A stretch of DNA of 35,854 bases from Bacteroidota bacterium. GTDB lineage: Bacteria > Bacteroidota > Bacteroidia > Bacteroidales > UBA1402. This document shows positions 7,854-24,126 of this stretch, one piece after another. The position numbers and the translations under genes are program-made. The stretch is taken from positions 1 to 35,854 of the forward strand of contig JAUZOU010000002.1 in NCBI GenBank assembly GCA_030706285.1, written 5' to 3'. Below the pieces are notes generated by a model that saw only the letters and a list, made by a program, of their open reading frames with translations, had not been told where the DNA came from and searched no databases. Within the stretch, counting starts at the first letter, position 1; the number at the start of each line of letters is the position of its first letter.

Positions 7854-9842
7854 TTAAAAACGAATGTACTTTTCTACAGTCGCCCATGAGATTTTGTCGC
7901 CAATAATGTTGCCCCGGCATATTTGATAATGGTTTGTGGATAAGTTCGTATACGAACCAAAAAATCCGCCTGATCCTATTGAACCGATAAATCCGCATCT
8001 TCTGAGCATTGAATAGTGGTTCTCACTGTTGCATCCGGGGCCATAACTGTAGAGTACACTGTTCATGCATAACGAATCACAAACATCGATGATTTTGTAA
8101 AGTTCCCATTGAAGTACCAATGCGTTTTTATAAGGTGGGTAAACATCCTGGGACCAAGTATGGGAAATAGCATCAATGTTATTTCCCCTGGCAGCCAGGA
8201 TCATGTTTCTGCTTGATTGAATATCGTCAAGAAGCATAGTCCCATTGTCATCGATTTCATCGATAGCCAGAATGGATCCAAAAATAATAGGATAGCCATA
8301 TTGAGTGTAGATGGATCTTACACCTTGATCATTCCAGTTAAACCTCCAAGGAGCGTCGGTGATCAGAATAAATGCAGACTTGATAGCTGGTTTCAATGAT
8401 CCGTTCAGAAAGTTGGCCAGCTCTTTGGTTCCATAGAGGGTATACCCTTCCTGCTGAAGCAAAGTAAGTGCATCTTCCAGTCTTGAAAGGCTCTGATTGT
8501 ACGATACAGACAGTGTATCTCCCTCATAGATATCTTCAGTCCGGTGTGTCATCAGGCCAAGAATCTGGGGAGTTCTGCTGGAAACGATCACAGGAGTGGA
8601 TCCAATGATTGTTTTGATCAGTGCATCACCGGTATGATCCAAATCGATCTCTATATCCTTGGCTGTAATGTATCCGGTCATGCTTGAACTACCACCAATA
8701 TAGACAGCTGTGGCTGAGCCAAAAGCAGCAAACAGAGTGGTCTGACCGTCAACAGCGACATACAGATCATTCGATTTTCTGACCATCTCCACGGTATGCC
8801 TCGATTCGTCTTTCCACAATCTGATATCAACCGGGAACGAATCGTAATAATACCCCAATGCTCTAGAAGAAGGATCAATCTGTTGATAATAATAACCGAC
8901 AAGTTTAATTTTTCCGAACTGAAGCAGACCGCTGCAATCCTGTAGTAAAGTCAAATCCATCATCATGAGATCAATTCCGTAATCAGATAAGGCTCCACCA
9001 GCAGCAGAGGCCGTTTTGATTTCTTCATATAACGAACTTATCTTTTTGTAGGTAGAATCGGCCGTTTTTAAAGAAGTGCTCCAGATCGTACTTGTTATTC
9101 CATTATTATAGGTAGTCACATTATCACAATCAAGCCCATCTCTGATTATCGAAAAAGTATCGTTTGCCACCATAACAGCTAAATCCCTATAGTTGTCTAA
9201 GAAATCCTGTCTGGCTATCAGCAATTTGGGATCTGGCAGCTCTACTGTTTTGGCATAGTTGCCTTTTAGCCATAACTGGAATGCCGTATTGCCAACCAGA
9301 GGTTGCGTCGAGATCATTTTTCTGTTATACGTGACACCATTCCACTTATCGTCAATGACGATAAAACCGGAGTTGAAGCCAATCTGCTGACTGCAGGTCG
9401 TATTTTCCTTATCATAAGGAGTGGTCATCAGGATCGATGGTGCACGTTCCTTCAGCATAACACGGATATTCTTGTCTGCTCCGGATAGCTGGCAAATCGT
9501 GACATTGCTATTGCCTTCGTTGCAGTTCTGATTGATTCTGAAATCGAATACCACTCTGAAATCAGCAATACCTGCCAAACTTTTGTAATAGACTGCATTT
9601 TCTGCACCATAAGTCCCGGTATTAATCAGGTCGACCTCTCCGGGATAAGTGATCTTCACGGTATCGGTCAATATCGTTTTTACCGTATAGCCTTCCGGTT
9701 TTACAAATGTCATGCTGTCAATGCTGCCGATTTTAAAAGCATTACTTATTCCATCGTCATTGTTGATGTATAAATACTCCTGAGCATGGATGCCACTCAT
9801 CATCAAAAATAGCACGACAAGAGATCTTAGTTGCTTATTCAT
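7854..9842 (-). CDS. Secreted hypothetical protein (662 aa). Its C-terminal region weakly resembles a degenerate NodB-type polysaccharide deacetylase domain
   Basis: Signal peptide MNKQLRSLVVLFLMMSGIHAQ. It is the last co-directional gene of the polysaccharide locus, 55 nt after the aminotransferase. The C-terminal motif order ILITDAPW ... GYPIIFGSI ... ISHTWSQ ... YSYGPG loosely parallels NodB TFDDG / FF.iG / H(S/T)xxH / RPPYG, with catalytic positions altered. Confidence 0.55.
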   Translation of the reverse strand: MNKQLRSLVVLFLMMSGIHAQEYLYINNDDGISNAFKIGSIDSMTFVKPEGYTVKTILTDTVKITYPGEVDLINTGTYGAENAVYYKSLAGIADFRVVFDFRINQNCNEGNSNVTICQLSGADKNIRVMLKERAPSILMTTPYDKENTTCSQQIGFNSGFIVIDDKWNGVTYNRKMISTQPLVGNTAFQLWLKGNYAKTVELPDPKLLIARQDFLDNYRDLAVMVANDTFSIIRDGLDCDNVTTYNNGITSTIWSTSLKTADSTYKKISSLYEEIKTASAAGGALSDYGIDLMMMDLTLLQDCSGLLQFGKIKLVGYYYQQIDPSSRALGYYYDSFPVDIRLWKDESRHTVEMVRKSNDLYVAVDGQTTLFAAFGSATAVYIGGSSSMTGYITAKDIEIDLDHTGDALIKTIIGSTPVIVSSRTPQILGLMTHRTEDIYEGDTLSVSYNQSLSRLEDALTLLQQEGYTLYGTKELANFLNGSLKPAIKSAFILITDAPWRFNWNDQGVRSIYTQYGYPIIFGSILAIDEIDDNGTMLLDDIQSSRNMILAARGNNIDAISHTWSQDVYPPYKNALVLQWELYKIIDVCDSLCMNSVLYSYGPGCNSENHYSMLRRCGFIGSIGSGGFFGSYTNLSTNHYQICRGNIIGDKISWATVEKYIRF

Positions 9843-9897: not shown

Positions 9898-11178
9898 TTA
9901 TGGAGCTAAAAACTCCATTTTCGGTGCCGATTTTTCCTTGCAAGAGGCTGTCGATATTTTCGGAACTTTTGCCACCTTATAATAGGCATCAACAATGGAA
10001 TCAATCACGTAGGCCACCATTTCATCCGTCATCTGCGGATATACCGGCAGGGATATTTCCTGAGAAAAGTTCTTGTAGGCCTGAGGGTAATCGTTTATGT
10101 CATAGCCTTGTTCCTTGAAAAACGTCAGCATAGGCATCGGTATGAAATGTACATTCAGGTACACTCGTCTAAGGGTAATGATGTCGATCATTTCATCCCG
10201 CTGCTCTTCGGTTATATTCTTAATACGCAACGCGTACAAATGGTAAGAAGTCTCCTTACCTTTTGCTTCGGATGGCGGCAATATAGCCCAGTCAAAATTG
10301 GCGAAAGCACGGTTATACTTCAAAAAAGTCCGTTTGCGTTTGAGCAATAATTTGGGGTATTCCCGCAATTCAGCCAACCCGATGGCGGCATTGACATCGG
10401 GCAGATTGATTTTCATACCCAATCCGACAATGTCATAACGCCATCCTCCAGCTTTGCTCTTTGCCAAGGCATCCTTTGTCTGACAATTTAGTGACATCAT
10501 GCGTAGTTCAGTATAAAGCGCCTCGTTATCAAAGGGTTCAGGAAGGTTCAGGCAGATAGCGCCACCTTCTGCTGTCGTCACATTTTTTACCGCATGCAGG
10601 GAAAATATAGCAACATCCGTTTCAGCGCCTGTCCGTTTGTAACTATTATAGATTGCACCCAATGAATGAGCGGCATCGTTTAAAATCAAGATACGCCCTA
10701 ACTTATGCTGGACAGGAGAAGTAGCATGAAACCGGACATTGATTTCCGGTTCTCTGACCAGTTTCATGATTTCATCATAATCACAGGGGAAACCAGCCAG
10801 GTCTACCGGAATGATGGCTTTCGTCCTCTCCGTGATGGCACGGCGAATACCTTCTATGGAAATATTGAAATCTTCACCCGAGTCAACCATGACCGGCCTT
10901 CCTCCGGCATGAATCACAGCCAGGGCGGTGGCACAATACGTATAGGCTGGTACAATCACCTCATCCCCATCTTTCAATCCCAGCCAGCGCAACATCATGA
11001 TGGCGCCTGATGTCCAGGAATTCACACACAAGACTTGCCTGGCACCGGAATAGCTTCTGATTTCCTGTTCTAAGGCTTTCACTTTGGGGCCGGTCGTAAG
11101 CCAACCAGACTTCAACGTATCAACAACTTCATTAATGACAGAGTCGTCAATATAAGGGGGAGAGAATGGAATTTGCAT
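9898..11178 (-). CDS. DegT/DnrJ/EryC1/StrS-family PLP-dependent sugar aminotransferase (PglE/WcfR-like)
   Basis: The family-typical N-terminus MQIPFSPPYIDDSVINEVVDTLKSGWLTTGPKV starts at the internal ATG 11178. PLP-lysine region FSLHAVKNVTTAEGGAI. The upstream 60 codons of the ORF (to 11358) have no family similarity and run through a terminator-like hairpin. Confidence 0.9.
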   Translation of the reverse strand: MQIPFSPPYIDDSVINEVVDTLKSGWLTTGPKVKALEQEIRSYSGARQVLCVNSWTSGAIMMLRWLGLKDGDEVIVPAYTYCATALAVIHAGGRPVMVDSGEDFNISIEGIRRAITERTKAIIPVDLAGFPCDYDEIMKLVREPEINVRFHATSPVQHKLGRILILNDAAHSLGAIYNSYKRTGAETDVAIFSLHAVKNVTTAEGGAICLNLPEPFDNEALYTELRMMSLNCQTKDALAKSKAGGWRYDIVGLGMKINLPDVNAAIGLAELREYPKLLLKRKRTFLKYNRAFANFDWAILPPSEAKGKETSYHLYALRIKNITEEQRDEMIDIITLRRVYLNVHFIPMPMLTFFKEQGYDINDYPQAYKNFSQEISLPVYPQMTDEMVAYVIDSIVDAYYKVAKVPKISTASCKEKSAPKMEFLAP

Positions 11179-11228
11179 AAGATGTGCATTTAATTGGATA
11201 ACAAATTTTAATTTTTCAACACAGGGGA

Positions 11229-11269
11229 ATAAAAAAATAGTCTGTCTTGCAGAAAATAAGACAACTATT
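11229..11269 (-). terminator. Terminator-like hairpin plus U-run on the minus strand, between the carrier-protein gene and the aminotransferase gene
   Basis: Plus-strand aatagtctgtctt (11236..11248) pairs with aagacaactatt (11258..11269): 12 bp, one bulge, 9-nt loop. On the minus strand the stem is followed by UUUUUAUU (plus-strand A-run 11228..11235). The stem is AT-rich, with only 4 GC pairs. Confidence 0.35.
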
Positions 11270-11400
11270 TGCTTCTGTTGTACCACGGGAAAATGAGATT
11301 GAACATTGCAACTAATGGTTGAGAGCCATACGCAGAAGCATCCATACAAATCATTCAAGAGTATCCAATACCTAATTGAAAAAGATAAAAACGTGACAAG

Positions 11401-11628
11401 CTACTTGTCCTTAATCAGATTATACAGCTCTTCGACCGTAGCAACATTACGAATGTCTTTCTTGAAAATTTGTGTATGACACTGTTCATTGATCATCACT
11501 ATGACCAACAATTCCGTCAAGGAACTCCATTCATCCAGATCCTGAAACCTGGTAGCCGAATCTATTCCTTTGGAGGACGATTCGTCAAATTGTTTTGAGA
11601 ACTCACGTACAAAGTCATTCAGTTCCAT
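11401..11628 (-). CDS. Small acyl/peptidyl carrier protein (PP-binding type), paralog of 22373..22606
   Basis: 75 aa and acidic. The motif DLDEWSSLTELLVIVMI places a Ser at about residue 35-36, where ACPs carry the phosphopantetheine serine. It aligns clearly with the 77-aa protein at 22373..22606 (ELEEWSSLIALAVMAI). Confidence 0.7.
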   Translation of the reverse strand: MELNDFVREFSKQFDESSSKGIDSATRFQDLDEWSSLTELLVIVMINEQCHTQIFKKDIRNVATVEELYNLIKDK

Positions 11629-11648
11629 AGGATATAGGTATAATCGTG

Positions 11649-12323
11649 TTATAAATAATCTTCTTCAACCAACAACGTATCGACTGAGTATTTTCTGGCA
11701 GGATTGCCTGAATACAATAACGCCGGCTTTGTTGACTTATTAATGAACGAAGCAGCCCCGACAAACGATTGCCAGCCGATCGTAAGACCATTGGCAACCG
11801 TCGTGTTCTGACCGATGAAGCAATTATCCTCGACGGTAACATCTCCTCCTATCACCACTGAAGCAGCAATGAAGACATTATTACCCACTTTGCATCGATG
11901 ACCGACAATCGCCAGTGCATTCAGGAAGCAGCCCATCCCAATAGATGCTCCCTTACCGATATAACACCCATCACAGATAAACGCGTTGCAACCGATTTCA
12001 GCCGTATGACAAATAGCCTTGGAAGAAATATAGCTGATCAGGTGATAGCCATTCCTCATGGCCTGTTCGATGACTTCGCCTCTCGTTCTGTTCATTTTCC
12101 GATACCCGATTGCAACAAACATATCGAATTCAACCGGTGGATATTTTTCCAGAACACACTCAAAATCCACTACCGGCAGCCCCTCAAACCGGTCAATTTT
12201 CCTAAACGCCTTATGGACAGTAAATGCAACCACCTCATAGTCACTGTCTATATCAAGATAATACTTCACTTCTCCAGCAAGATTCTCATCACCGAAAATG
12301 ATCACTTTCTTTTTCATTATCAT
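11649..12323 (-). CDS. NeuD/PglD-family hexapeptide-repeat sugar N/O-acyltransferase
   Basis: N-terminal Rossmann-like MKKKVIIFGDENLAGEVKYYLDIDSDYEVVAF, then left-handed beta-helix hexapeptide repeats (IGCNAFICDGCYIGKGASIGMGCFLNALAIVGHRCKVGNNVFIAASVVIGGDVTVEDNCFIG). The start could also be the ATG at 12317. Confidence 0.8.
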   Translation of the reverse strand: MIMKKKVIIFGDENLAGEVKYYLDIDSDYEVVAFTVHKAFRKIDRFEGLPVVDFECVLEKYPPVEFDMFVAIGYRKMNRTRGEVIEQAMRNGYHLISYISSKAICHTAEIGCNAFICDGCYIGKGASIGMGCFLNALAIVGHRCKVGNNVFIAASVVIGGDVTVEDNCFIGQNTTVANGLTIGWQSFVGAASFINKSTKPALLYSGNPARKYSVDTLLVEEDYL

Positions 12324-12422: not shown

Positions 12423-13034
12423 TTAGCCAGCCGTCGAAGGGGATTGTTCAACGAATACTTTTTCCCTTTTTATAACAGCTTCAATTGTCTTGAAAACGAT
12501 TTTCAAGTCAAACAAGAAATTCATATGCTCGACATAAAACAAATCTTTTTCAAATTTCTCTGCCTGCCCAATTGAATTACGAAAATAAGCCTGGACATAC
12601 CCAGTAATACCAGGGCGAACTGATATGATTTTCAATTGGACATCATCAAAGTCATTCACGTTGTTTGTCGCCAGTACCGGACGCGGTCCGACAAGGCTCA
12701 TATCACCCACAAGCACATTCAAGAACTGTGGTATTTCATCAATGCTCGTTTTACGAAAGAATTTTCCACACTTGGTCTGACGCGGGTCGTTTTCTCCATT
12801 GAACGTCGAACCGTCCACATTGCGAATATCCGGCGAATTTACCTTCATCGTCCTGAGCTTGAACATCTTGAAATTTTTCCCGTTGCGCCCCAGTCTATAG
12901 GCATTGTAAAAAACGGGACCTTTATCCGTGAAATAGATAACTGGAGCTGACAGTACAACGACAACTGCCACAAATGGGAAAGCCAAAATCGACAGAACTA
13001 TATCGAATAGTCTTTTTAAATACTTATTATACAT
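12423..13034 (-). CDS. Small monotopic phosphoglycosyl transferase (bacterial sugar transferase, PglC/WcfS-like), copy 1
   Basis: Internal ATG at 13034 gives MYNKYLKRLFDIVLSILAFPFVAVVVVLSAPVIYF (re-entrant helix). Motifs FKMFKLRTM, DEIPQ (Asp-Glu dyad), GDMSLVGPRP, PGITG. The longer ORF to 13124 would overlap the upstream GT4 gene. Confidence 0.85.
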   Translation of the reverse strand: MYNKYLKRLFDIVLSILAFPFVAVVVVLSAPVIYFTDKGPVFYNAYRLGRNGKNFKMFKLRTMKVNSPDIRNVDGSTFNGENDPRQTKCGKFFRKTSIDEIPQFLNVLVGDMSLVGPRPVLATNNVNDFDDVQLKIISVRPGITGYVQAYFRNSIGQAEKFEKDLFYVEHMNFLFDLKIVFKTIEAVIKREKVFVEQSPSTAG

Positions 13035-15542: not shown

Positions 15543-16163
15543 TTATTCAATAAGCATAAGACCATAGAAAATCACAGAATTCGTATAAATCCCTTTTCTG
15601 CTAACAACTGTCTGAATGGTTTTTATGAAGATCCTGGCATCCAAGCAAAAGCTCATGTTGTTTGCATAATAGGCATCATTTAACCGCTTTTCCCTGTTTG
15701 TCAAGCTATTTCTGAAATAAGCCTGAGTATAGCCTGTTATACCAGGCAAAGCCTTCATTTTATCCGATTCATCGTTCCTAAAAGATCCGATTGCACTAGA
15801 CAGACTTGGTCTTGGACCGATGATCGACATATCTCCCTTTAAAACGTTTATCAGCTGTGGTAGTTCATCCAAGCTCGTCTCTCTTATAAACTTTCCGATC
15901 CTGGTTACCCTTGGATCGTTTTTTGAATTATACGTGCTACCGTCTGAATTGATCAGTTGTGGTGCATTGACTTTCATAGACCTAAATTTATACATCTTAA
16001 AAATCTTATACTGTCTGCCGATCCGGTCGGCCTTGTAAAAAACCGGTCCTCCATCTTCAAGTTTAATCAATCCCCCCAGTATTATGCAAACGATCAAGAA
16101 AACCGGAAGGCATAAAAAGAAGACAAGCAGATCTTCCACTCGTTTGAAAATTGTGATGTACAT
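15543..16163 (-). CDS. Small monotopic phosphoglycosyl transferase (PglC-like), copy 2
   Basis: FKRVEDLLVFFLCLPVFLIVCIILGGLI re-entrant helix. FKMYKFRSM, DELPQ, GDMSIIGPRP, PGITGYTQAYFRNS. Clear paralog of 12423..13034. Confidence 0.85.
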   Translation of the reverse strand: MYITIFKRVEDLLVFFLCLPVFLIVCIILGGLIKLEDGGPVFYKADRIGRQYKIFKMYKFRSMKVNAPQLINSDGSTYNSKNDPRVTRIGKFIRETSLDELPQLINVLKGDMSIIGPRPSLSSAIGSFRNDESDKMKALPGITGYTQAYFRNSLTNREKRLNDAYYANNMSFCLDARIFIKTIQTVVSRKGIYTNSVIFYGLMLIE

Positions 16164-17408: not shown

Positions 17409-17891
17409 TCACAATACTTTTTCCATGATATAGACTCGAAAATAAGTGGTTGGTCTTGAGCCTGTAATGGAAAAATGATGTTTCTTAAAGAATTGAATGG
17501 CATTTTCACTTTTATCGTACACATCCAAATAAAGGGAATAGACACCTGCTTTGTGGCAAAAATCTTCAATGTATGCCATACTGCTCATGCCGATACCTTG
17601 ACCTGAAGCCAAAGGGAGCGTTGCCATCTTATAAAGCTTGGCGATAGTAGCGACATTGTAACTTATTTCTATTTGAAACGTATGAACATACCTGCCGGAA
17701 TCAAGGTCCTCAACCAAAAAAACATGGCGATTTGTACAATCATTCTGGATGGAGTCTATCGGGTAAGGCGTTTTCCAATGACACAATCCTAGTTCTTTAT
17801 ACATGTATTCACCACATTCTTTAATAATCCTATAACTCTCCTTGATTTTGTTTGTATCACTAGCTGATATTTCATAAAATCGCAAGTTCAT
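17409..17891 (-). CDS. GNAT-family N-acetyltransferase
   Basis: 160 aa. Acetyl-CoA-binding-type motif LASGQGIGMSSMAYIEDFCHKAG, followed by LDVYDKSENAIQFFKKHHFSITG. Confidence 0.75.
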   Translation of the reverse strand: MNLRFYEISASDTNKIKESYRIIKECGEYMYKELGLCHWKTPYPIDSIQNDCTNRHVFLVEDLDSGRYVHTFQIEISYNVATIAKLYKMATLPLASGQGIGMSSMAYIEDFCHKAGVYSLYLDVYDKSENAIQFFKKHHFSITGSRPTTYFRVYIMEKVL

Positions 17892-17993: not shown

Positions 17994-19058
17994 CTAACAT
18001 TCAATCATCTTATTGAACCTCAACTGTCCTACCTCCATAATTATGGCAGCCCAAGTCAATCCGACACCAAATCCAGCCAGACACAGTTTATACTGATTGT
18101 GGCAGAGTTTGTCTCCAAGGTTATATGAAATGTTGGTCGGCACCGTGACACTACTGGCATTTCCGAATAGCCCGACGATGTTGCTCGGCATTTTTTCTCT
18201 GTCCACTCCGATCGTATCTGCCAATTTATTTAACATAAATCGGTTGGGCTGATGAAACATATACCAATCAATGTCGTCACGATTCAATCCTGATTTTGTC
18301 AGTAATTCTTCAATCATCGGAGGCACTTCCCTCTGGACAAAATTGAAGATTTCATCTCCTTTCATGATAACCTGGTTCAGCGACCGGATATTTCCATCCT
18401 CATCTTCACGCATGATCGCCGTTTCTGCACTGCATGGCATACGGAAACCACCAGCCGGAATCATCAGTGCAAAGGCGCCTGTACCATCCATCTTGATGGC
18501 ACAATGAATGACCGAGCCGGTCGGATTCTTTTCGACAATAGTCACAGAAGCCGCATCACCTGCCAATGGATATGAATTCCGGTCTTGTTTGGAGACTTTT
18601 GAACTCAGGACATCGGCATTCAACAGAACGACCCTGTTAATCGAGTCCTGCTCCAGTAACATAAAGGCCTGAATAAGGCCAAGTTCATAGCCAGCACAGC
18701 CCTGATTAATATCCATACAAATCATATCCTGTTTCATGCCGTAATGGCCTTGAATAATGTTGCTTGTCGGCGGCAGGAAATAATCCGGCGATTGAGAAAC
18801 AAACAACAAGGCATCGATCTCGTTTTTATCCAGCAGTTCATTTTGAAACAGATAATCCAGTCCGGCGATGCACAAATCTGATGCACAAACCTCACTGTCT
18901 GCAAGTCTATGCGTATTGTACCCCATAGCCAGTTTTAGTTTCATCGATTTGGCCGGAGGAAAATTATAATTTTCCACCTCATCGTCAAACTTCAGTTCAT
19001 TTCGAGGCAAGACAGTCAGAATACCACTGATCCTTTTGTTGTTGAATGTCAGTTTCAC
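17994..19058 (-). CDS. KAS III (FabH)-like thiolase-fold enzyme, copy 2 in transcription order
   Basis: A Cys-His-Asn triad is present: DINQGCAGYELG, MFHQPNRFML, GLFGNASSVTVP. The first possible start in the open frame is GTG at 19056..19058, 8 nt after the upstream stop. The next in-frame ATG is about 48 codons in. Confidence 0.85.
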   Translation of the reverse strand: MKLTFNNKRISGILTVLPRNELKFDDEVENYNFPPAKSMKLKLAMGYNTHRLADSEVCASDLCIAGLDYLFQNELLDKNEIDALLFVSQSPDYFLPPTSNIIQGHYGMKQDMICMDINQGCAGYELGLIQAFMLLEQDSINRVVLLNADVLSSKVSKQDRNSYPLAGDAASVTIVEKNPTGSVIHCAIKMDGTGAFALMIPAGGFRMPCSAETAIMREDEDGNIRSLNQVIMKGDEIFNFVQREVPPMIEELLTKSGLNRDDIDWYMFHQPNRFMLNKLADTIGVDREKMPSNIVGLFGNASSVTVPTNISYNLGDKLCHNQYKLCLAGFGVGLTWAAIIMEVGQLRFNKMIEC

Positions 19059-19066
19059 TTGAGTTT

Positions 19067-20083
19067 TTATCTAAGTGTATTTGTCTTTCCTAAATCGTAT
19101 CTTTTCGATAGTGCAATTCGAAAATTTTCCGGTGGTATTCCACAGGAAATCATAGCTATAAATACTTCCGATTCTCTTATATCGCACAACTTACGTAACG
19201 TTAAATCCTTTTCAATCGTATTACTGCAATTCAACATACAAGCTCCAATTTTATAATAATGCAAAGCATAAAGTACATTCATTGCATAGATGCCACCATC
19301 TATAAAAGATTCATTTCTTTCTCCAACATTTGCAAACACACCGACTTCAGCTGTTATAACGATCAACTTGTTAACTAAATGTCCAAAGCCTCTATTTCCT
19401 CCCTGGATAATTAATATTGAATTAATTTGATCTTTATTTTCAAACACATACGTCCTCCAGCATTGTCGATTGCAGGCTGATGGTGCCGTTCGTGCCAAAT
19501 CCAGGACCTCAATCAGTTTTTCTGTAGGAATGTTTTCAGTAGAATAATTCCTTATACTTGATCTCGATTTGGCAAATTGAAAAAAGGGAGATTCCGAGTA
19601 TCTGAAATAGTCTTCAATAGATGCGTCTTTTTGACGACAAACAGTGGTTTTAGCTACCACTTGCTTTAAATCATGAATTGAATTTGCGACTACCGCTTCT
19701 AACTGAAACATACAATTTTGGTGAAATTGTTCATACTCCAAGACGACGCCAACGGCATGTTCCAGCTGTTCATCAGTTTCGCCATATTTTTCAATATATT
19801 GCCTGCAATTAGTAGCCAGATTAAAGAGTAACTCCCTTCCAAATCCGAGTTTGGTATCTGGCATAGTCAAGCCTTTTTCAACGACATGGTATTCCTTTAT
19901 AATCTTACCAATTAGCTTTTGAGCGGTATTCGATCCAAAAGTATCTGAAAACCGTATGTACCTGTTCATGTCATAGCGGTACGCTTGCATTAGATGCCAC
20001 AGTAAGCTAAATTGTAGCTTCTTTCGTTTCAGAAAATCAAAAACGACAGTGGGTAGAATATTCTGAAGTAGTTCTTTTAGCAT
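19067..20083 (-). CDS. Nitroreductase-family (FMN oxidoreductase) domain protein with an unrecognised N-terminal extension of about 160 aa
   Basis: The C-terminal half carries RSSIRNYSTENIPTEKLIEVLDLARTAPSACNRQCWR, which fits the nitroreductase RxxxRxF ... PSxxNxQPW pattern. I recognise no family for the N-terminal half. Confidence 0.7.
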   Translation of the reverse strand: MLKELLQNILPTVVFDFLKRKKLQFSLLWHLMQAYRYDMNRYIRFSDTFGSNTAQKLIGKIIKEYHVVEKGLTMPDTKLGFGRELLFNLATNCRQYIEKYGETDEQLEHAVGVVLEYEQFHQNCMFQLEAVVANSIHDLKQVVAKTTVCRQKDASIEDYFRYSESPFFQFAKSRSSIRNYSTENIPTEKLIEVLDLARTAPSACNRQCWRTYVFENKDQINSILIIQGGNRGFGHLVNKLIVITAEVGVFANVGERNESFIDGGIYAMNVLYALHYYKIGACMLNCSNTIEKDLTLRKLCDIRESEVFIAMISCGIPPENFRIALSKRYDLGKTNTLR

Positions 20084-20215
20084 ATTAGTTTTTTTTTAGC
20101 CCGTAAAACCGAGCCCTGTTGGTTTAACTATCTTGTGTCGGACAAGCTGATCAATAGTAATAGATTATACCGATGCCTATTCCAGTCTTTTTCTTTACAA
20201 TTGATTCATTTCCAT

Positions 20216-20452
20216 TTACTTGGCGATATTTTTGGTAACAAGTGCCATAATATGTTCAACAGAGTTGAAATTTTCCGGAATGATGTCCATCCCGCTGATT
20301 GAGATTGAATAGGCATCATCCAATGACGAAACAAGATTGACTATATCGAATGAATCCAACATGCCTTCTTCAATAAAGTCCATCTGGGCATTAAAATTGT
20401 ATTCCGGACGAAGTTCTTCCAGGATTTCAAGTATGATTTCTTTCATAATCAT
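20216..20452 (-). CDS. DltC-like (D-alanyl-carrier-type) carrier protein
   Basis: 78 aa. FIEEGMLDSFDIVNLVSSLDDAYSISI closely parallels the DltC motif (EEGLLDSMGTVQLLLEL...) around the phosphopantetheine Ser. The start is ATG 20452 or 20446. Confidence 0.75.
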   Translation of the reverse strand: MIMKEIILEILEELRPEYNFNAQMDFIEEGMLDSFDIVNLVSSLDDAYSISISGMDIIPENFNSVEHIMALVTKNIAK

Positions 20453-20550
20453 AAGTTTTTATTCAAGACCATAAGCAACTCACATGTCGGATTTTCGCCC
20501 ACGCTGAACAGACGTTTGGGACAAACATGTTCGTTTCATAGCTTGATGTT

Positions 20551-21312
20551 TTATTGTTTGACAAACACATAATCTTTTAGACCATCTGGCTGATAATCAA
20601 GGATCTTATACATCTTCTTATTTAGTTTATTCATCGAATCATACCAGAAATAGGATTTCTCAATCTGATGTTCACCCATATAGTTGAACATATTGAAAAG
20701 TAAGAATAAGGCATTGTCCCAGCCCGTATGATCAAGCCAGCAATTAAAGTAAATTCTTGACTGTTCCCTGGTATAAATAATGACGCCTGTCACATCGCCT
20801 GATTGTTCATGCCGGTTTACCAAGGCCTGTTCATGCTCAATCATTCGTCGAAGCTCTTCCCTGGAGGGCAAATGGTCCAGATACGGATTAAAATGTGAAT
20901 AAAGCAGCGTATATATAGCTTCCAACTCATCTGGGCGGGCATAACACTGGATAAAAGGGCCGCTGGATTTATTGGAATTTTTATAAAGTCGTTCATAGAT
21001 GCCACATAGCTTGTATCCGCCTGTTACGAGAATCATCTCCAAGGATTGATCGATGGCTGTCTTTGATGGAATGTTGATGATATCTTCCGGCATCAGCCGT
21101 TTCAAGACACGCATTAATTCGACTGCGTTGTTGGATAAAAAATAGATACGGGAATACGTTTCATGATTTTTTTTCAAAATCAATGATTCCGGCAGTTCAA
21201 TATACTGCGTATCTGTCAGATCCACGCCGTAATAATTTGAGAATGCAGGCCGTTTCGATAGGATGCAGGCCACTTTTTCCTTTAATTGATGATGATCGGC
21301 CGGAATAAACAT
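20551..21312 (-). CDS. Hypothetical protein (253 aa). The C-terminal half may have a GNAT-like fold
   Basis: A clean ORF, separated by 3 nt from the stop of the upstream KAS III-like gene. The C-terminal region ARPDELEAIYTLLYSHF...VTGVIIYTREQSRIYFNCW...MYKILDYQPDGLKDYVFVK has the general layout of a GNAT domain but lacks a clear Q/RxxGxG/A motif. Confidence 0.5.
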   Translation of the reverse strand: MFIPADHHQLKEKVACILSKRPAFSNYYGVDLTDTQYIELPESLILKKNHETYSRIYFLSNNAVELMRVLKRLMPEDIINIPSKTAIDQSLEMILVTGGYKLCGIYERLYKNSNKSSGPFIQCYARPDELEAIYTLLYSHFNPYLDHLPSREELRRMIEHEQALVNRHEQSGDVTGVIIYTREQSRIYFNCWLDHTGWDNALFLLFNMFNYMGEHQIEKSYFWYDSMNKLNKKMYKILDYQPDGLKDYVFVKQ

Positions 21313-21315
21313 ACC

Positions 21316-22314
21316 TCAATTGAAATTTAATGTGACACCACCCCAGGAATAACCCGCTCCAAAACCTGCCAGCAAGACTTGTCCATGTAAGCGATCCTCT
21401 TTTTTTGCCTCATACAGAGCGATCGGAATACTTGAGGAAACCGTATTTCCTACATTTTCCAGGAATATGTAAAATTTTTCTTCTTCGATTGACAGCAGTT
21501 TTCTCAAATAGTTGATCATGTATTTGTTGGCCTGATGAAAAACAAACAAGTTGATATCAGGTTGTAAAAGGTGGTTACGGGCCAACACATGATCGACCAA
21601 ATCAGGAACGACCAGATTTGAAAAAGAAAAGACGGCACTACCGTTCATATACAGAAAGTCGCTTGAGACCGGATTATTTGAAGCATCAAAAGTCAGGTCA
21701 TTCAGTGGCTCACGATGACGCATCGCCCCTGTCTTGATGATCAGATCCTCTTTGTTTTTGCCATCTGATCCGAACGAAAACTCTCCGATTTCAGCCAGTC
21801 CATTCTTTGAGATTAAGGAGGCTGAAGCGCCATCACCAAAGATCGTGCGGTTTCCTTTATCCTTCGGATGTAAGCATTTAGTCATCGTTTCACCCGTTAG
21901 CAACAATACATTGGTAGCCATTCCGCTAAAAATCAGCCCTTTTGACAGAGCTAGTCCATAAATAAAGCCTGAACAACCCAATGAAAAATCCAAGGCACCA
22001 CAGGTGGTCGGCAGCCTTAACTCATGCTGAATCAGACAGGCCGAACACGGCAACATGTAATCCGGAGTCTCAGTGCAAAACAGCACAAAATCTATCGTCG
22101 ACCGGTCAATTTGATTTTCCTTGAATAGATTTTCTGCTGCCCTGACAGCCAGATCAGCTGCCGTTTCATTGTCAGCCGCTACATGCCGCTGATTGACACC
22201 CACTTTGGAGGCTATCTTGTCAACGCTCCATTCCGGAAACAACTCAACCAGCTGAGCATTAGTCAATATCTTTTCAGGAAGGGCATATGCCAAGGCCTTA
22301 ATATAGACTTTCAT
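21316..22314 (-). CDS. KAS III (FabH)-like thiolase-fold enzyme, copy 1 in transcription order
   Basis: Internal ATG at 22314 gives a FabH-typical start, MKVYIKALAYALPEKILTNAQL. Triad: DFSLGCSGFIYG, VFHQANKYMI, ENVGNTVSSSIP. The longer ORF to 22401 would overlap the upstream carrier gene by 29 nt. Confidence 0.85.
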   Translation of the reverse strand: MKVYIKALAYALPEKILTNAQLVELFPEWSVDKIASKVGVNQRHVAADNETAADLAVRAAENLFKENQIDRSTIDFVLFCTETPDYMLPCSACLIQHELRLPTTCGALDFSLGCSGFIYGLALSKGLIFSGMATNVLLLTGETMTKCLHPKDKGNRTIFGDGASASLISKNGLAEIGEFSFGSDGKNKEDLIIKTGAMRHREPLNDLTFDASNNPVSSDFLYMNGSAVFSFSNLVVPDLVDHVLARNHLLQPDINLFVFHQANKYMINYLRKLLSIEEEKFYIFLENVGNTVSSSIPIALYEAKKEDRLHGQVLLAGFGAGYSWGGVTLNFN

Positions 22315-22372
22315 AAGATCATATTTATTTTTAACGCATAGGCTTTCGTGACCACGGGGGAATTCAAACCTT

Positions 22373-22606
22373 TCAGTTCCTTTTTGACTCGACCAGTTCA
22401 AACAAATCCTTGATGGTATTCATTTGCCTCATTTCATTGACGGTTATGACAACGCCATACTTTTTGTCTGTTATAGCCATAACGGCCAACGCAATTAAGG
22501 AAGACCATTCTTCCAGTTCTCTGAATTTTGTTTCCGGGTTAAAAACCGCTTTGTCCGTTTCCTCAAACTGATCTGAAATCAGTTTAATGTATTCGTTGAC
22601 TTCCAT
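22373..22606 (-). CDS. Small acyl/peptidyl carrier protein, immediately downstream of the adenylating enzyme
   Basis: 77 aa. FRELEEWSSLIALAVMAITDKKYG with Ser at about residue 35-36. It starts 5 nt after the stop of the adenylation gene. Paralog of 11401..11628. Confidence 0.7.
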   Translation of the reverse strand: MEVNEYIKLISDQFEETDKAVFNPETKFRELEEWSSLIALAVMAITDKKYGVVITVNEMRQMNTIKDLFELVESKRN

Positions 22607-22611
22607 AATAA

Positions 22612-24126
22612 TTAGGCATTTAGGGTTCGACTTAGTTCCAACCTGTTGATCTTTCCATTCGAATTGACAGGCATCTTATTGATTCTGATCGCTTTTGACG
22701 GCAACATGTATTTAGGAATCAACTTAGACAATTGCTGCCGGAGATCGCTCATGGAAACGTCCGTCTTTGCCTCATAAAATAGAGTTATTTGCTGAACCTT
22801 ATAATCGTAGACGGCACAGCAACTATCTACCAGATGGGTTCCAAGAATGACTGTTTCAATTTCTCCAAGTTCAATCCGGTAGCCGTTCAATTTTATCTGA
22901 GCATCTTTTCGACCAACCAGGATAATCTCACCCGCCCTGTTTTGGTAGGCCAAATCGCCTGTCCGGTAAATCAGTTCCGGATAATGTCGGTTCAATGGAT
23001 TTTGAACAAACACTGTTTGTGTCTTTTCCTTGTCGTTGTAATAGCCCAATGCAAGGGATGATCCTCTCACACACAACTCACCTTGTTCACCAGGTTTGGC
23101 CATTTCTCCATTTTCAGTCAAAATCAGGATGTGCGTATTTTTACAAGCATAACCGATCGGCAATGGCTCATCATCTGAAAACGCCCGTTTCACCTCATAG
23201 TAAGTACAATCTACCGTTATTTCAGTCGGTCCGTACAAATTAACATAGCGACAATCGGGCAAATAGTTTCTCCAGTAATTCAGATGCTTGTTGTGCATCA
23301 CATCTCCGGCAAAAAAAACATCACGCAGATAAACTGGTTTTTTCATTGCAAACAGGTCCAGATTGGCTATCGTCGCAAACACATAAGGCACCCAGAAAAT
23401 CAGGCTGATTTGCCACTCATTCAACAAGTCGATCAATCTGGCAGGAAATGAAAACGAGTCCTCCGGCAAGATGGCCAATGTCGCTCCTGTGGCATACATC
23501 AGATAAATATCCAAGGTGGAATTGTCAAAATAGAATGGAGATTGATTGCCGATGATGGTAGTTTCGTCGATGTTCAATGCCAAGACGGCCCAGTCTATGT
23601 AATCAATCACCCCACGATGGGCAATCACGACGCCTTTTGGAATTCCGGTAGAACCTGAAGTGAATATCGAATAAACAGGATCTGTGTCAATTTTACGATC
23701 GATTGTATGCCGAATGGCCGATTCATCTATTTCCGGAGACAGGATCAAATCTTCGTATAAAATAATTTTCTGTAAACAAAATGACGTCAATGTTTCATAA
23801 TGACTTTTATCCGTAATGACGATTTGAGGGTCAATCACGTTTAAAATCGCTTTCACGCGAGCATCAGGAGACTTCACATCCAAAGGCACATAAAAGTTTC
23901 CACTATAATTAATTCCAAGAAAAGAGATAACAGATTCTTTGTTTTTAGGCATATATATTGCCACCGGACTGTCTTTCACCTGGCTGTTCAGCAGTTGCGA
24001 GGCTATCCTTTTCCCGGCATTCATCAGTTGAGCAAACGAAATCGCTCCATTCGCATCTTTTACAGCAATTTTGTCAGGATAGGCAGCCGTGGTTCTTTCC
24101 AGGTAGTCTGTTACGTTGGTTGTCAT
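22612..24126 (-). CDS. DltA-like stand-alone amino-acid adenylation enzyme (AMP-binding/ANL superfamily)
   Basis: The NRPS A-domain core motifs appear in order: SIFTSGSTGIPKGVVIAH (A3), NQSPFYFDNSTLDIY (A4, with the Asp that contacts an alpha-amino group), NLYGPTEITV (A5), GELCVRGSSLALGYY (A6), YRTGDLA (A7), GRKDAQIKLNGYRIELGEIE (A8), LPKYMLP (A9), NSNGKINR (A10). Length and motif spacing match DltA (NQAPFSFDLSVMDLY, TYGPTEATV) as I recall it. Confidence 0.9.
   Translation of the reverse strand: MTTNVTDYLERTTAAYPDKIAVKDANGAISFAQLMNAGKRIASQLLNSQVKDSPVAIYMPKNKESVISFLGINYSGNFYVPLDVKSPDARVKAILNVIDPQIVITDKSHYETLTSFCLQKIILYEDLILSPEIDESAIRHTIDRKIDTDPVYSIFTSGSTGIPKGVVIAHRGVIDYIDWAVLALNIDETTIIGNQSPFYFDNSTLDIYLMYATGATLAILPEDSFSFPARLIDLLNEWQISLIFWVPYVFATIANLDLFAMKKPVYLRDVFFAGDVMHNKHLNYWRNYLPDCRYVNLYGPTEITVDCTYYEVKRAFSDDEPLPIGYACKNTHILILTENGEMAKPGEQGELCVRGSSLALGYYNDKEKTQTVFVQNPLNRHYPELIYRTGDLAYQNRAGEIILVGRKDAQIKLNGYRIELGEIETVILGTHLVDSCCAVYDYKVQQITLFYEAKTDVSMSDLRQQLSKLIPKYMLPSKAIRINKMPVNSNGKINRLELSRTLNA

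Follow-up and report, generated by a model that had tools for sequence, protein, structure and literature searches.

A small acyl carrier protein between a sugar N-acyltransferase and a 4-aminotransferase at the tail of a gut-type Bacteroidales capsule operon

Why should an acyl carrier protein be encoded between two enzymes that modify an amino sugar? In the window, by which we mean the whole 35,854-nucleotide stretch of DNA analysed, the tail of a gut-type Bacteroidales capsule operon encodes a sugar N-acyltransferase followed by a small acyl carrier protein (ACP) and then a 4-aminotransferase. A sequence-only reading had proposed that the acyltransferase takes its acyl group from this carrier, here called ACP75, rather than from acetyl-CoA, and passes it to an amino sugar. 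On balance we lean towards this answer. The pairing of acyltransferase and carrier speaks for it, whereas the donor itself is not readable from sequence, and the enzyme has the fold of acetyl-CoA users and no docking domain for a carrier.

On the minus strand a small phosphoglycosyl transferase (PGT) is followed by the acyltransferase, a 20-nt gap, ACP75, a 222-nt spacer and the DegT aminotransferase:

12423..13034, minus strand: small PglC-type phosphoglycosyl transferase, PGT1 (PF02397 Bac_transf, 8.6e-58; TIGR03025, 2.3e-67)
11649..12323, minus strand: NeuD/PglD/PerB-fold sugar N-acyltransferase (LbH), 224 aa (Hexapep matches, TIGR03570, AF2/Foldseek)
11629..11648, minus strand: gap of 20 nt between acyltransferase stop and carrier start, from the coordinates
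11401..11628, minus strand: ACP75, acidic acyl carrier protein of the W-x-S-L type, 75 aa (paralogy, profile, model)
11179..11400, minus strand: spacer of 222 nt (hairpin, T-run and motif)
9898..11178, minus strand: DegT-family sugar 4-aminotransferase of the Spr1654/WcfR (AATGal) type (PF01041, 1.3e-81; PDB 6ewj)

All four proteins are thus present on the minus strand, arranged as had been described, and the carrier of 75 aa begins exactly 20 nt downstream of the acyltransferase. The locus holds a DegT 4-aminotransferase as well as a dedicated ACP that adjoins an acyltransferase of the NeuD/PglD type. The order PGT-acyltransferase-carrier-DegT stands, but the further claim that the locus ends with DegT does not, since a co-directional gene (7854-9842) comes after it. 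PGT1, whose longest open reading frame extends to 13124, has its likely start at MYNKYL and probably puts the modified amino sugar onto undecaprenyl phosphate. The DegT frame as listed (9898-11358) is over-extended from a TTG; the ATG at 11178 (MQIPFSPPY...) is almost certainly the real start, which leaves the 222-nt spacer behind the carrier. This spacer holds a terminator-like hairpin and T-run at about 11231-11267 and a promoter-like TAAAATTTG motif at 11202-11210, and its 3' half is conserved with L007, a metagenome contig discussed below.

ACP75 is a bona fide ACP, despite the lack of a Pfam PP-binding match when it is searched alone. By itself it gives no Pfam match at E < 0.01, falling short of the PF00550 threshold, and the best of the NCBIfam ACP models scores 14.2 bits (E = 0.039), below threshold. 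Some relatives at 49% identity do carry PF00550, however, and the family profile matches PDB 2lml ('putative acyl carrier protein') at 1.8e-13 together with dozens of FAS-II ACPs. The AF2 model (pLDDT 88) has its helix II at residues 36-49, and its best 50 Foldseek matches are all ACPs (TM 0.65-0.79). An invariant W34-x-S36-L37 motif in the family places Ser36, the predicted phosphopantetheine site (codon 11521-11523), at the N-terminus of this helix. The protein is acidic (pI 4.6), and the genome has one PPTase gene.

The acyltransferase matches TIGR03570 (NeuD/PglB/VioB) over its full length at about 158.5 bits (E = 1.6e-46), missing the cut-off of 160.8 in this profile search by about 2 bits (158.3 bits on repetition). 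Its AF2 model (pLDDT 88.8) combines a Rossmann-like N-terminal domain with a left-handed β-helix, and Foldseek places it close to PerB (TM 0.84/0.90), PglB-ATD (0.83/0.90) and VioB (0.83/0.88). Full-length superposition on PerB, PglB-ATD, VioB, Pcryo_0637 and WeeI, all nucleotide-sugar 4-N-acetyltransferases, gives TM values of 0.81-0.90. The histidine of its ...IVGHRC... segment aligns with that of ...VIEHEC... in PglD (the position of PglD His125 and PerB His141) and is invariant in an alignment of 27 relatives. As modelled, then, the fold is that of the acetyl-CoA users PerB, PglB, VioB and PglD. Foldseek finds no C-terminal ACP-docking domain of the LpxA/LpxD kind in the model; only the β-helix superposes on LpxA/LpxD (TM about 0.26-0.30), and the match to the LpxD profile (76 bits, cut-off 242) is confined to the hexapeptide region. 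Charge and pI of ACP-linked and unlinked proteins of this acyltransferase type gave no clear signal.

What, then, ties acyltransferase to carrier? The carrier family of ACP75 occurs in 212 of 401 genomes of the order, and its best loci are cassettes in which an acyltransferase of the LbH, GNAT or FrhB-hexapeptide type is followed by ACP, SDR and KAS III; SDR and KAS III lie beside the ACP in all canonical cassettes seen. Among the 34 ACPs of the clade outside the window, 17 have an acyltransferase gene directly upstream. In the related cassettes this slot is filled by three unrelated acyltransferase types, and the spacing of acyltransferase and ACP is 2-21 nt, the range in which the 20 nt of the window falls. 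The order PGT-acyltransferase-ACP recurs in three loci (L127, L132 and L139). Counted from the other side, a same-strand ACP lies within 2.7 kb of at least 11 of the 149 best non-self NeuD-type matches in the order, and within 200 nt of at least five, both values being lower bounds from two match lists cross-matched by hand. The arrangement is common in this order, and carrier-linked N-acylation by NeuD/PglD-type enzymes has been proposed before.

The sole close relatives of the locus, metagenome contigs L007 and L008, both keep acyltransferase, ACP, spacer and DegT, with a PaaK/CapK-like adenylate-forming ligase upstream where the window has the PGT. Relative to the L007 orthologs, dN/dS is 0.03 for the acyltransferase and 0.115 for ACP75, with dS saturated (about 1.2 for ACP75), and the pair is under purifying selection in this differently built sister locus. 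The family layout, the purifying selection and the plain DegT-PGT orthologs described below all support a functional coupling of acyltransferase and carrier.

The alternative that survives best, although we regard it as unlikely, is that we are dealing with an ordinary PglD/PerB-type 4-N-acetyltransferase that uses acetyl-CoA (or a short acyl-CoA), while ACP75 serves only the upstream KAS III enzymes. The place of the enzyme beside the carrier would then reflect cassette ancestry rather than donor choice, and another protein would attach the product of the upstream module elsewhere: the GNAT (17409-17891), a 253-aa protein or a KAS III in the role of an acyltransferase. Such a division of labour is consistent with a fold and catalytic histidine identical to those of acetyl-CoA users, with the other candidate acyltransferases in the locus, and with a model that has no ACP-docking domain; nor was a fusion of the two proteins present among the best 120 matches to a concatenated acyltransferase-ACP query. 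It also agrees with the closest homologs, most of which are not linked to an ACP: among the nearest 80 genomic relatives of the acyltransferase (37-45% identity) only L040, L054, L057 and perhaps L049 have one, and the two best metagenome relatives lie in WbqC-methyltransferase-DegT clusters devoid of ACP. The acyltransferase tree shows the lineage of the window as a long branch next to this ACP-free clade, and ACP linkage is polyphyletic. Since the nearest relatives are mostly unlinked and the linkage is polyphyletic, homology does not decide the acyl donor. Use of acetyl-CoA accords poorly, however, with the acyltransferases found directly upstream of half of the family's ACPs (the 17 of 34 above), drawn from three unrelated types, and with the persistence of the pair in L007 beside only a ligase. 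Published genetics, moreover, tie vioB, vioR and acp of another bacterium to one N-acyl product (PMC3927599).

The acceptor is the second question. The aminotransferase at 9898-11178, the sole DegT of the contig, had been labelled PglE-type, a label we would replace: it is closer to Spr1654/WcfR, matching Spr1654 (PDB 6ewj, an identity confirmed in PMC5936713) at E = 1.1e-100, residues 2-412 on 11-418. From this match we predict an AATGal aminotransferase, which would supply the amine acceptor. Its orthologs elsewhere (53-59% identity) lie in DegT-PGT pairs, and in seven of the eight nearest in the order these pairs are bare of acyltransferase and carrier, so that the acyltransferase-ACP pair is an added element here. 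The dS comparison with L007 gives DegT an evolutionary history different from that of the pair, and because of this contrast between genes we infer a recombination boundary at the spacer. Aminotransferases of the AATGal type are associated with zwitterionic polysaccharides.

These features could also mean that the 4-amino sugar is left unacylated, as AATGal with a free amine, and that the acyltransferase and ACP75 act on some other amino sugar or on a hydroxyl. The resemblance of DegT to Spr1654 at 1e-100, its orthologs in acyltransferase-free pairs, its separate history and the terminator-like element that parts it from the acyltransferase and ACP75 would all suit such an arrangement, which we nevertheless consider decidedly improbable: the acyltransferase model matches enzymes specific for the C4 amine of nucleotide-linked 4-amino-4,6-dideoxyhexoses, the contig has no second DegT, and acyltransferase, ACP and DegT are kept together in both L007 and L008. 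Least credible of all is that ACP75 is a decaying, non-functional remnant of an acyltransferase-ACP-reductase-KAS III cassette that has lost its last two genes, for although the SDR and KAS III that always accompany canonical cassettes are both missing beside it, its frame is intact, its W-x-S-L motif is kept, its model is confident, its dN/dS relative to the ortholog in L007 is 0.115 with dS about 1.2, and L007 has the same truncated layout.

If the carrier is the donor, where does its acyl group come from? The probable source is a module (17994..22401) that lies upstream on the same strand, next to an adenylase:

22612-24126, minus strand: DltA-like adenylase (TIGR01733, 2.9e-102)
22373..22606, minus strand: ACP77, paralogous carrier right after the adenylase (31% identity to ACP75, same clade)
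21316-22401, minus strand: first KAS III (FabH-type Cys, His and Asn motif contexts)
20551-21312, minus strand: 253-aa protein, within the module
20216-20452, minus strand: ACP78, DltC-like carrier, within the module
19067-20083, minus strand: nitroreductase-domain protein, within the module
17994-19058, minus strand: second KAS III (FabH-type Cys, His and Asn motif contexts)

A GNAT gene (17409-17891) is also present in the locus. ACP75 had been called a paralog of the carrier next to the adenylase, and the comparison agrees (31% identity, E = 6e-16); ACP77 is probably the starter carrier. The two fall in one Bacteroidales ACP clade of an unresolved tree, and a sub-specialisation of ACP75 versus ACP77, given this shared clade, was set aside. 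ACP75 has no KAS III gene beside it, those of the module being 6-10 kb upstream, and no SDR or ketoreductase is found anywhere on the contig; this departure from the canonical cassettes counts against the carrier as donor.

With ACP75 as donor, the product would be an N-acylated 4-amino-4,6-dideoxy-HexNAc, serving as the first sugar of the repeat unit. UDP-4-keto-6-deoxy-HexNAc would come from a PglF-type dehydratase whose gene would lie in another part of the genome, and the Spr1654/WcfR-type aminotransferase (9898-11178) would turn this into the UDP-4-amino sugar. The PerB/PglD-fold enzyme (11649-12323), with its conserved histidine as catalyst, would then acylate the 4-amine from the phosphopantetheine thioester of ACP75 (11401-11628), not from acetyl-CoA, and PGT1 (12423-13034) would pass the sugar phosphate, now acylated, on to the lipid carrier. 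ACP75 may act as the product-bearing carrier of the upstream module, extender or terminal. Canonical cassettes of this carrier family suggest, by analogy, that it would be malonylated by the housekeeping FabD and then extended by one of the two KAS III enzymes, the starter being an amino acid put on ACP77 by the DltA-like adenylase. The complete relay, in which an amino acid loaded on ACP77 is lengthened by the two KAS III enzymes by way of ACP78 and ends on ACP75, from which the PerB-fold enzyme moves the resulting amino-acid-derived β-keto or amino acyl chain directly to an AATGal-type sugar, is a speculative proposal that we think doubtful as a whole. Were it true, the positive charge of the capsule would sit on the acyl side chain and not on the sugar, and NeuD/PglD-fold enzymes would be acyl-ACP users that manage without a docking domain like that of LpxA/LpxD.

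The idea of a carrier-bound donor is less novel than the sequence-only reading implied, the same having been proposed in two earlier studies (PMC3927599, PMC6519341), and as the principle has already been proposed in two systems the gain here is incremental. The use of acyl-ACP by PglD/NeuD-fold enzymes is widely assumed and biochemically not settled: our literature search found no report of biochemical proof that a NeuD/PglD-family enzyme uses acyl-ACP, and searches on 3-hydroxybutanoyl N-acyltransferases, tetronate/perosamine and Bacteroides returned nothing useful. If ACP75 is the donor, the locus offers a compact test case for such direct use by these N-acyltransferases. Since roughly half of the sampled Bacteroidales genomes contain the carrier family, such chemistry would affect the surface structures of many gut bacteria, and possibly their immunomodulatory charge pattern too.

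How does the locus compare with known systems? PglC/PglD/PglE of C. jejuni, PglB-ATD of Neisseria, PerB and VioB share with it the two-domain fold (TM 0.8-0.9), the catalytic histidine and the grouping of PGT, acyltransferase and aminotransferase genes as a trio. The PglD, PglB-ATD, PerB and VioB systems, however, use acetyl-CoA and have no carrier protein, and their acyltransferases are only 18-24% identical to that of the window. WcfR/WcfS of B. fragilis PSA and Spr1654 of S. pneumoniae resemble the window in aminotransferase type (1e-100 to Spr1654) and small PGT, but the amine stays free in PSA and in pneumococcal teichoic acid and these systems have neither acyltransferase nor carrier, whereas in the window the acyltransferase-ACP pair lies between PGT and aminotransferase and the gene order is inverted. 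LpxA and LpxD have a β-helix catalytic scaffold in common with the window enzyme, and an acyl-ACP donor too if the hypothesis holds; they lack its Rossmann-like N-terminal domain, and it lacks their C-terminal ACP-docking domain. In butirosin side-chain assembly (BtrI ACP, BtrJ ATP-grasp, BtrH acyltransferase) a stand-alone ACP carries the growing acyl group, which derives from an amino acid, is built with the help of an ATP-grasp enzyme and is then passed to a sugar amine; BtrH is not a β-helix protein and the acceptor is an aminoglycoside rather than a nucleotide sugar.

Closest to our proposal are two systems with a carrier of their own. In the O-antigen locus of Flavobacterium psychrophilum (wfpC-wfpG with pglE/pglF; Cisar et al. 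2019, PMC6519341), which belongs to the same phylum, the pglD homolog wfpG is predicted to take 3,5-dihydroxyhexanoyl from the ACP WfpD onto UDP-Qui2NAc4N. It resembles the window in pairing a pglD homolog with a locus-specific ACP, in having two KAS enzymes and in that its acyl-ACP donor is, as here, a prediction. Unlike the window it has a ketoreductase, one ACP and a known product (3,5-dihydroxyhexanoyl), and it has no adenylase, ATP-grasp or nitroreductase-like genes. In the viosamine island of Pseudomonas syringae pv. tabaci (vioA, vioS, vioB, vioR, acp, vioM, vioT; Yamamoto et al. 2011, PMC3927599), vioA-vioS-vioB-vioR-acp leads to N-(3-hydroxybutanoyl)viosamine, a product lost in vioA, vioB and vioR mutants. 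This island, like the window, brings together a DegT-type 4-aminotransferase, a NeuD/PglD-family acyltransferase, a small dedicated ACP and KAS III in one glycan locus, and its product is a 4-N-acylated 4-amino-4,6-dideoxyhexose, as we propose here. It serves a flagellin glycan, with dTDP-viosamine as acceptor, a ketoreductase, a single ACP and a 3-hydroxybutanoyl group. In the window the locus is one for a capsule, the aminotransferase is of the AATGal type, a ketoreductase is missing and ACP75 stands away from the KAS genes; there are three carriers and two KAS III enzymes, along with an adenylase for amino acids and a nitroreductase-domain protein. The unusual feature of the window is a carrier with no ketosynthase or reductase of its own, which would be fed by an amino-acid-primed module of three carriers.

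On its minus strand the window carries a capsule operon of the Wzx/Wzy type, whose tail is laid out as the sequence-only reading described it: phosphoglycosyl transferase, acyltransferase, 20-nt gap, carrier and aminotransferase follow in that order, and the description is therefore accurate.

12423-13034, minus strand: PGT1, small phosphoglycosyl transferase (PF02397, 8.6e-58)
11649-12323, minus strand: LbH, hexapeptide-repeat acyltransferase of 224 aa, first gene after PGT1
20-nt gap between LbH and ACP75, minus strand (from gene coordinates)
11401-11628, minus strand: ACP75, ORF of 75 aa, after LbH in transcription order
11179-11400, minus strand: spacer of 222 nt between ACP75 and DegT (from gene coordinates)
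9898-11178, minus strand, start ATG at 11178: DegT, aminotransferase (PF01041, 1.3e-81)
7854-9842, minus strand: further co-directional gene, 3' of DegT

A TTG start for DegT at 11358 (486-aa ORF, 9898-11358) is an over-extension, and another 75-aa ORF (11615-11842, minus strand), in a different frame and overlapping the end of the acyltransferase gene, is probably spurious. The locus has one wzx, one wzy and two small PGT paralogs (12423-13034 and 15543-16163), of which only PGT1 adjoins the LbH-ACP-DegT block.

Evidence from outside Pfam makes it clear that the 75-aa ORF is a carrier protein. ACP75 alone has no match in a Pfam search and only a marginal ACP match in NCBIfam. Its homologs of exactly 75 aa are 47-73% identical, some of them carrying PF00550; W34, S36 and L37 never vary within the family, and the family profile matches PDB 2lml ('putative acyl carrier protein') at 1.8e-13 as well as many FAS-II ACPs. 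The AF2 model (pLDDT 88) is a four-helix ACP in which helix II begins at Ser36, the predicted phosphopantetheine site, and all 50 of the 50 best Foldseek matches are ACPs (TM up to 0.79). The protein is acidic (pI 4.6), and the genome has one PPTase gene. Its proposed paralogy with the adenylase-adjacent carrier is borne out by 31% identity (E = 6e-16) to ACP77, the 77-aa ORF directly 3' of the DltA-like adenylase. Elsewhere in the genome, contig C35 (2861-4635) has another adenylase paired with a carrier of this ACP family, outside any recognised cassette.

LbH retains the catalytic His and scores 158.5 bits on TIGR03570 (NeuD/PglB/VioB), about 2 bits below the cut-off. Its AF2 model (pLDDT 88.8) superposes over the full length on PerB, the PglB acetyltransferase domain, VioB, Pcryo_0637, WeeI and PglD (TM up to 0.84/0.90), all acetyl-CoA-dependent N-acetyltransferases, whereas LpxA and LpxD match only in the β-helix (TM ~0.27). 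This modelled fold match makes the C4 amine of a nucleotide-linked 4-amino-4,6-dideoxyhexose very probably the acceptor; on the acyl donor the fold says nothing decisive. Most of the nearest 80 genomic relatives (37-45% identity, from many phyla) have no ACP; those that do are L040 and L054 (FdtA-KAS III-ACP-LbH), L057 (DegT-ACP-SDR-adenylase-LbH) and perhaps L049. The best two metagenome relatives lie in WbqC-LbH-methyltransferase-DegT clusters. In the LbH tree the window lineage forms a long branch (1.54) beside a mostly ACP-free clade of nearest relatives, and ACP linkage requires several independent gains; a search with a concatenated LbH+ACP query showed no LbH::ACP fusion in its 120 best matches.

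Clusters of a WbqC-family protein, a NeuD-type acyltransferase, a GH130/GH32N-like protein, a methyltransferase and DegT are widely distributed, in Cytophagales, Acidobacteriota, cyanobacteria and other groups (among loci L012-L091, e.g. L058 7294-8651 and L021 6650-8657; also L149 and L150). To our knowledge this cluster has no characterised function.

Carriers of the ACP75 type occur in 212 of the 401 sampled genomes of the order, and the best-scoring loci share a recurrent cassette, acyltransferase-ACP-SDR (FabG-like)-KAS III, whose acyltransferase is a distant LbH, an Acetyltransf_3 GNAT or an FrhB-hexapeptide fusion. Within the Bacteroidales clade of the ACP tree, a recognised acyltransferase gene lies directly 5' in 17 of 34 members from outside the window; spacing in related cassettes is 2-21 nt, which the 20 nt seen here fits, and the order PGT-LbH-ACP recurs in L127, L132 and L139. 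Hand cross-matching of the listed carrier and NeuD-type places, which gives a lower bound, showed that, among the 149 best non-self NeuD-type matches in the order, at least 11 have a same-strand ACP within 2.7 kb and at least 5 have one within 200 nt. Linkage to an ACP thus recurs among NeuD-type enzymes, but in a minority of them. The KAS III and reductase genes adjacent in canonical cassettes are both absent beside ACP75, and no SDR was found anywhere on the contig.

The only close relatives are two metagenome contigs, L007 and L008 (LbH 87%, ACP 73% and DegT 98% identity), which keep the order LbH-ACP-spacer-DegT. Upstream of LbH they carry, instead of a PGT, the C-terminal half of an adenylate-forming ligase (L007 2-712, L008 2-724; PaaK/CapK/F390-synthetase-like, NF045666, 5e-24), a possible dedicated carrier loader. 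Between the window and L007, Nei-Gojobori estimates give LbH a dN/dS of 0.03 (dS about 2.2, saturated) and the ACP 0.115 (dS about 1.2), against a dS of only 0.14 for DegT. The spacer (window 11179-11400, L007 1775-2004) is conserved only in its 3' half, roughly 150 nt containing a terminator-like hairpin, a T-run and a TAAAATTTG motif. Together these values place a putative recombination (mosaic) boundary inside the spacer, and DegT may form a conserved end module with a promoter of its own, common to different capsule types. Selection has thus kept the LbH-ACP pair together in two loci of different construction, one of them with the possible loading ligase next to it; we consider this the strongest local argument that the two proteins work together, and it also opposes reading ACP75 as a dead remnant.

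Among solved structures DegT is closest to 6ewj (E = 1.1e-100 over the full length), which is Spr1654 of S. pneumoniae, an enzyme predicted to form UDP-AATGal (PMC5936713). Of eight DegT orthologs in other families of the order (53-59% identity), 7 have a small PGT as immediate neighbour and neither acyltransferase nor carrier, a bare DegT-PGT layout that is WcfR/WcfS-like; compared with such loci, the LbH-ACP pair is an added element here. Genes for PglF-type dehydratases lie elsewhere in the genome.

We slightly favour a joint scheme in which DegT would form a UDP-4-amino-4,6-dideoxy-HexNAc, LbH would acylate its amine from acyl-S-ACP75, and PGT1 would use the acylated sugar to start the repeat unit. 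The canonical cassettes suggest, by analogy, that ACP75 may serve a KAS III as extender or product carrier, and the starter could be an amino acid that the DltA-like adenylase activates on ACP77. FabH-type Cys, His and Asn motif contexts are present in both KAS III proteins, and the locus further encodes ACP78 (a DltC-like carrier), a nitroreductase-domain protein, a GNAT and two ATP-grasp ligases. An ATP-grasp pair also accompanies the LbH-ACP unit in L143 (G134:C18), from the same family as the window (DegT-ATP-grasp-ATP-grasp-LbH-ACP-SDR-KAS III), so these genes probably belong to the same chemistry. L140 (G138:C4, 5603-13208) encodes, in this order, DegT, PGT, a 211-aa protein, ACP, SDR, KAS III, a 527-aa protein, ACP and GT4; its DegT (4e-103) and GT4 (2e-171) match those of the window, and its gene content is related, with a different acyl module. 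The 527-aa protein, with sub-threshold HAD/NIF-phosphatase matches only, is possibly FkbH-like.

The arrangement noticed in the sequence-only reading is thus confirmed, and its interpretation, that the acyltransferase draws its donor from the carrier and not from acetyl-CoA, is partly supported: the conserved LbH-ACP pairing and the selection seen with L007 speak for it, whereas the fold does not set the donor and the nearest LbH relatives are mostly ACP-free. Also counting against it are the missing fusions, the absence of a KAS III and a reductase beside ACP75, and the hairpin and TAAAATTTG motif that separate ACP75 from DegT. Nor is the hypothesis itself novel. The N-(3-hydroxybutanoyl)viosamine found on P. 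syringae pv. tabaci flagellin depends on the viosamine island (vioA, vioS, vioB, vioR, acp), and vioA, vioB and vioR mutants lose the viosamine sugar (PMC3927599); in F. psychrophilum, WfpG, a PglD homolog, is predicted to take 3,5-dihydroxyhexanoyl from WfpD, an ACP specific to the O-antigen, and pass it to UDP-Qui2NAc4N (PMC6519341). We found no literature report of direct biochemical proof of acyl-ACP use by the NeuD/PglD-type family. Unlike the viosamine island and the wfp locus, the window lacks a ketoreductase and has an AATGal-type aminotransferase, three carriers and a module putatively primed by an amino acid; ACP75 lies apart from the KAS genes.
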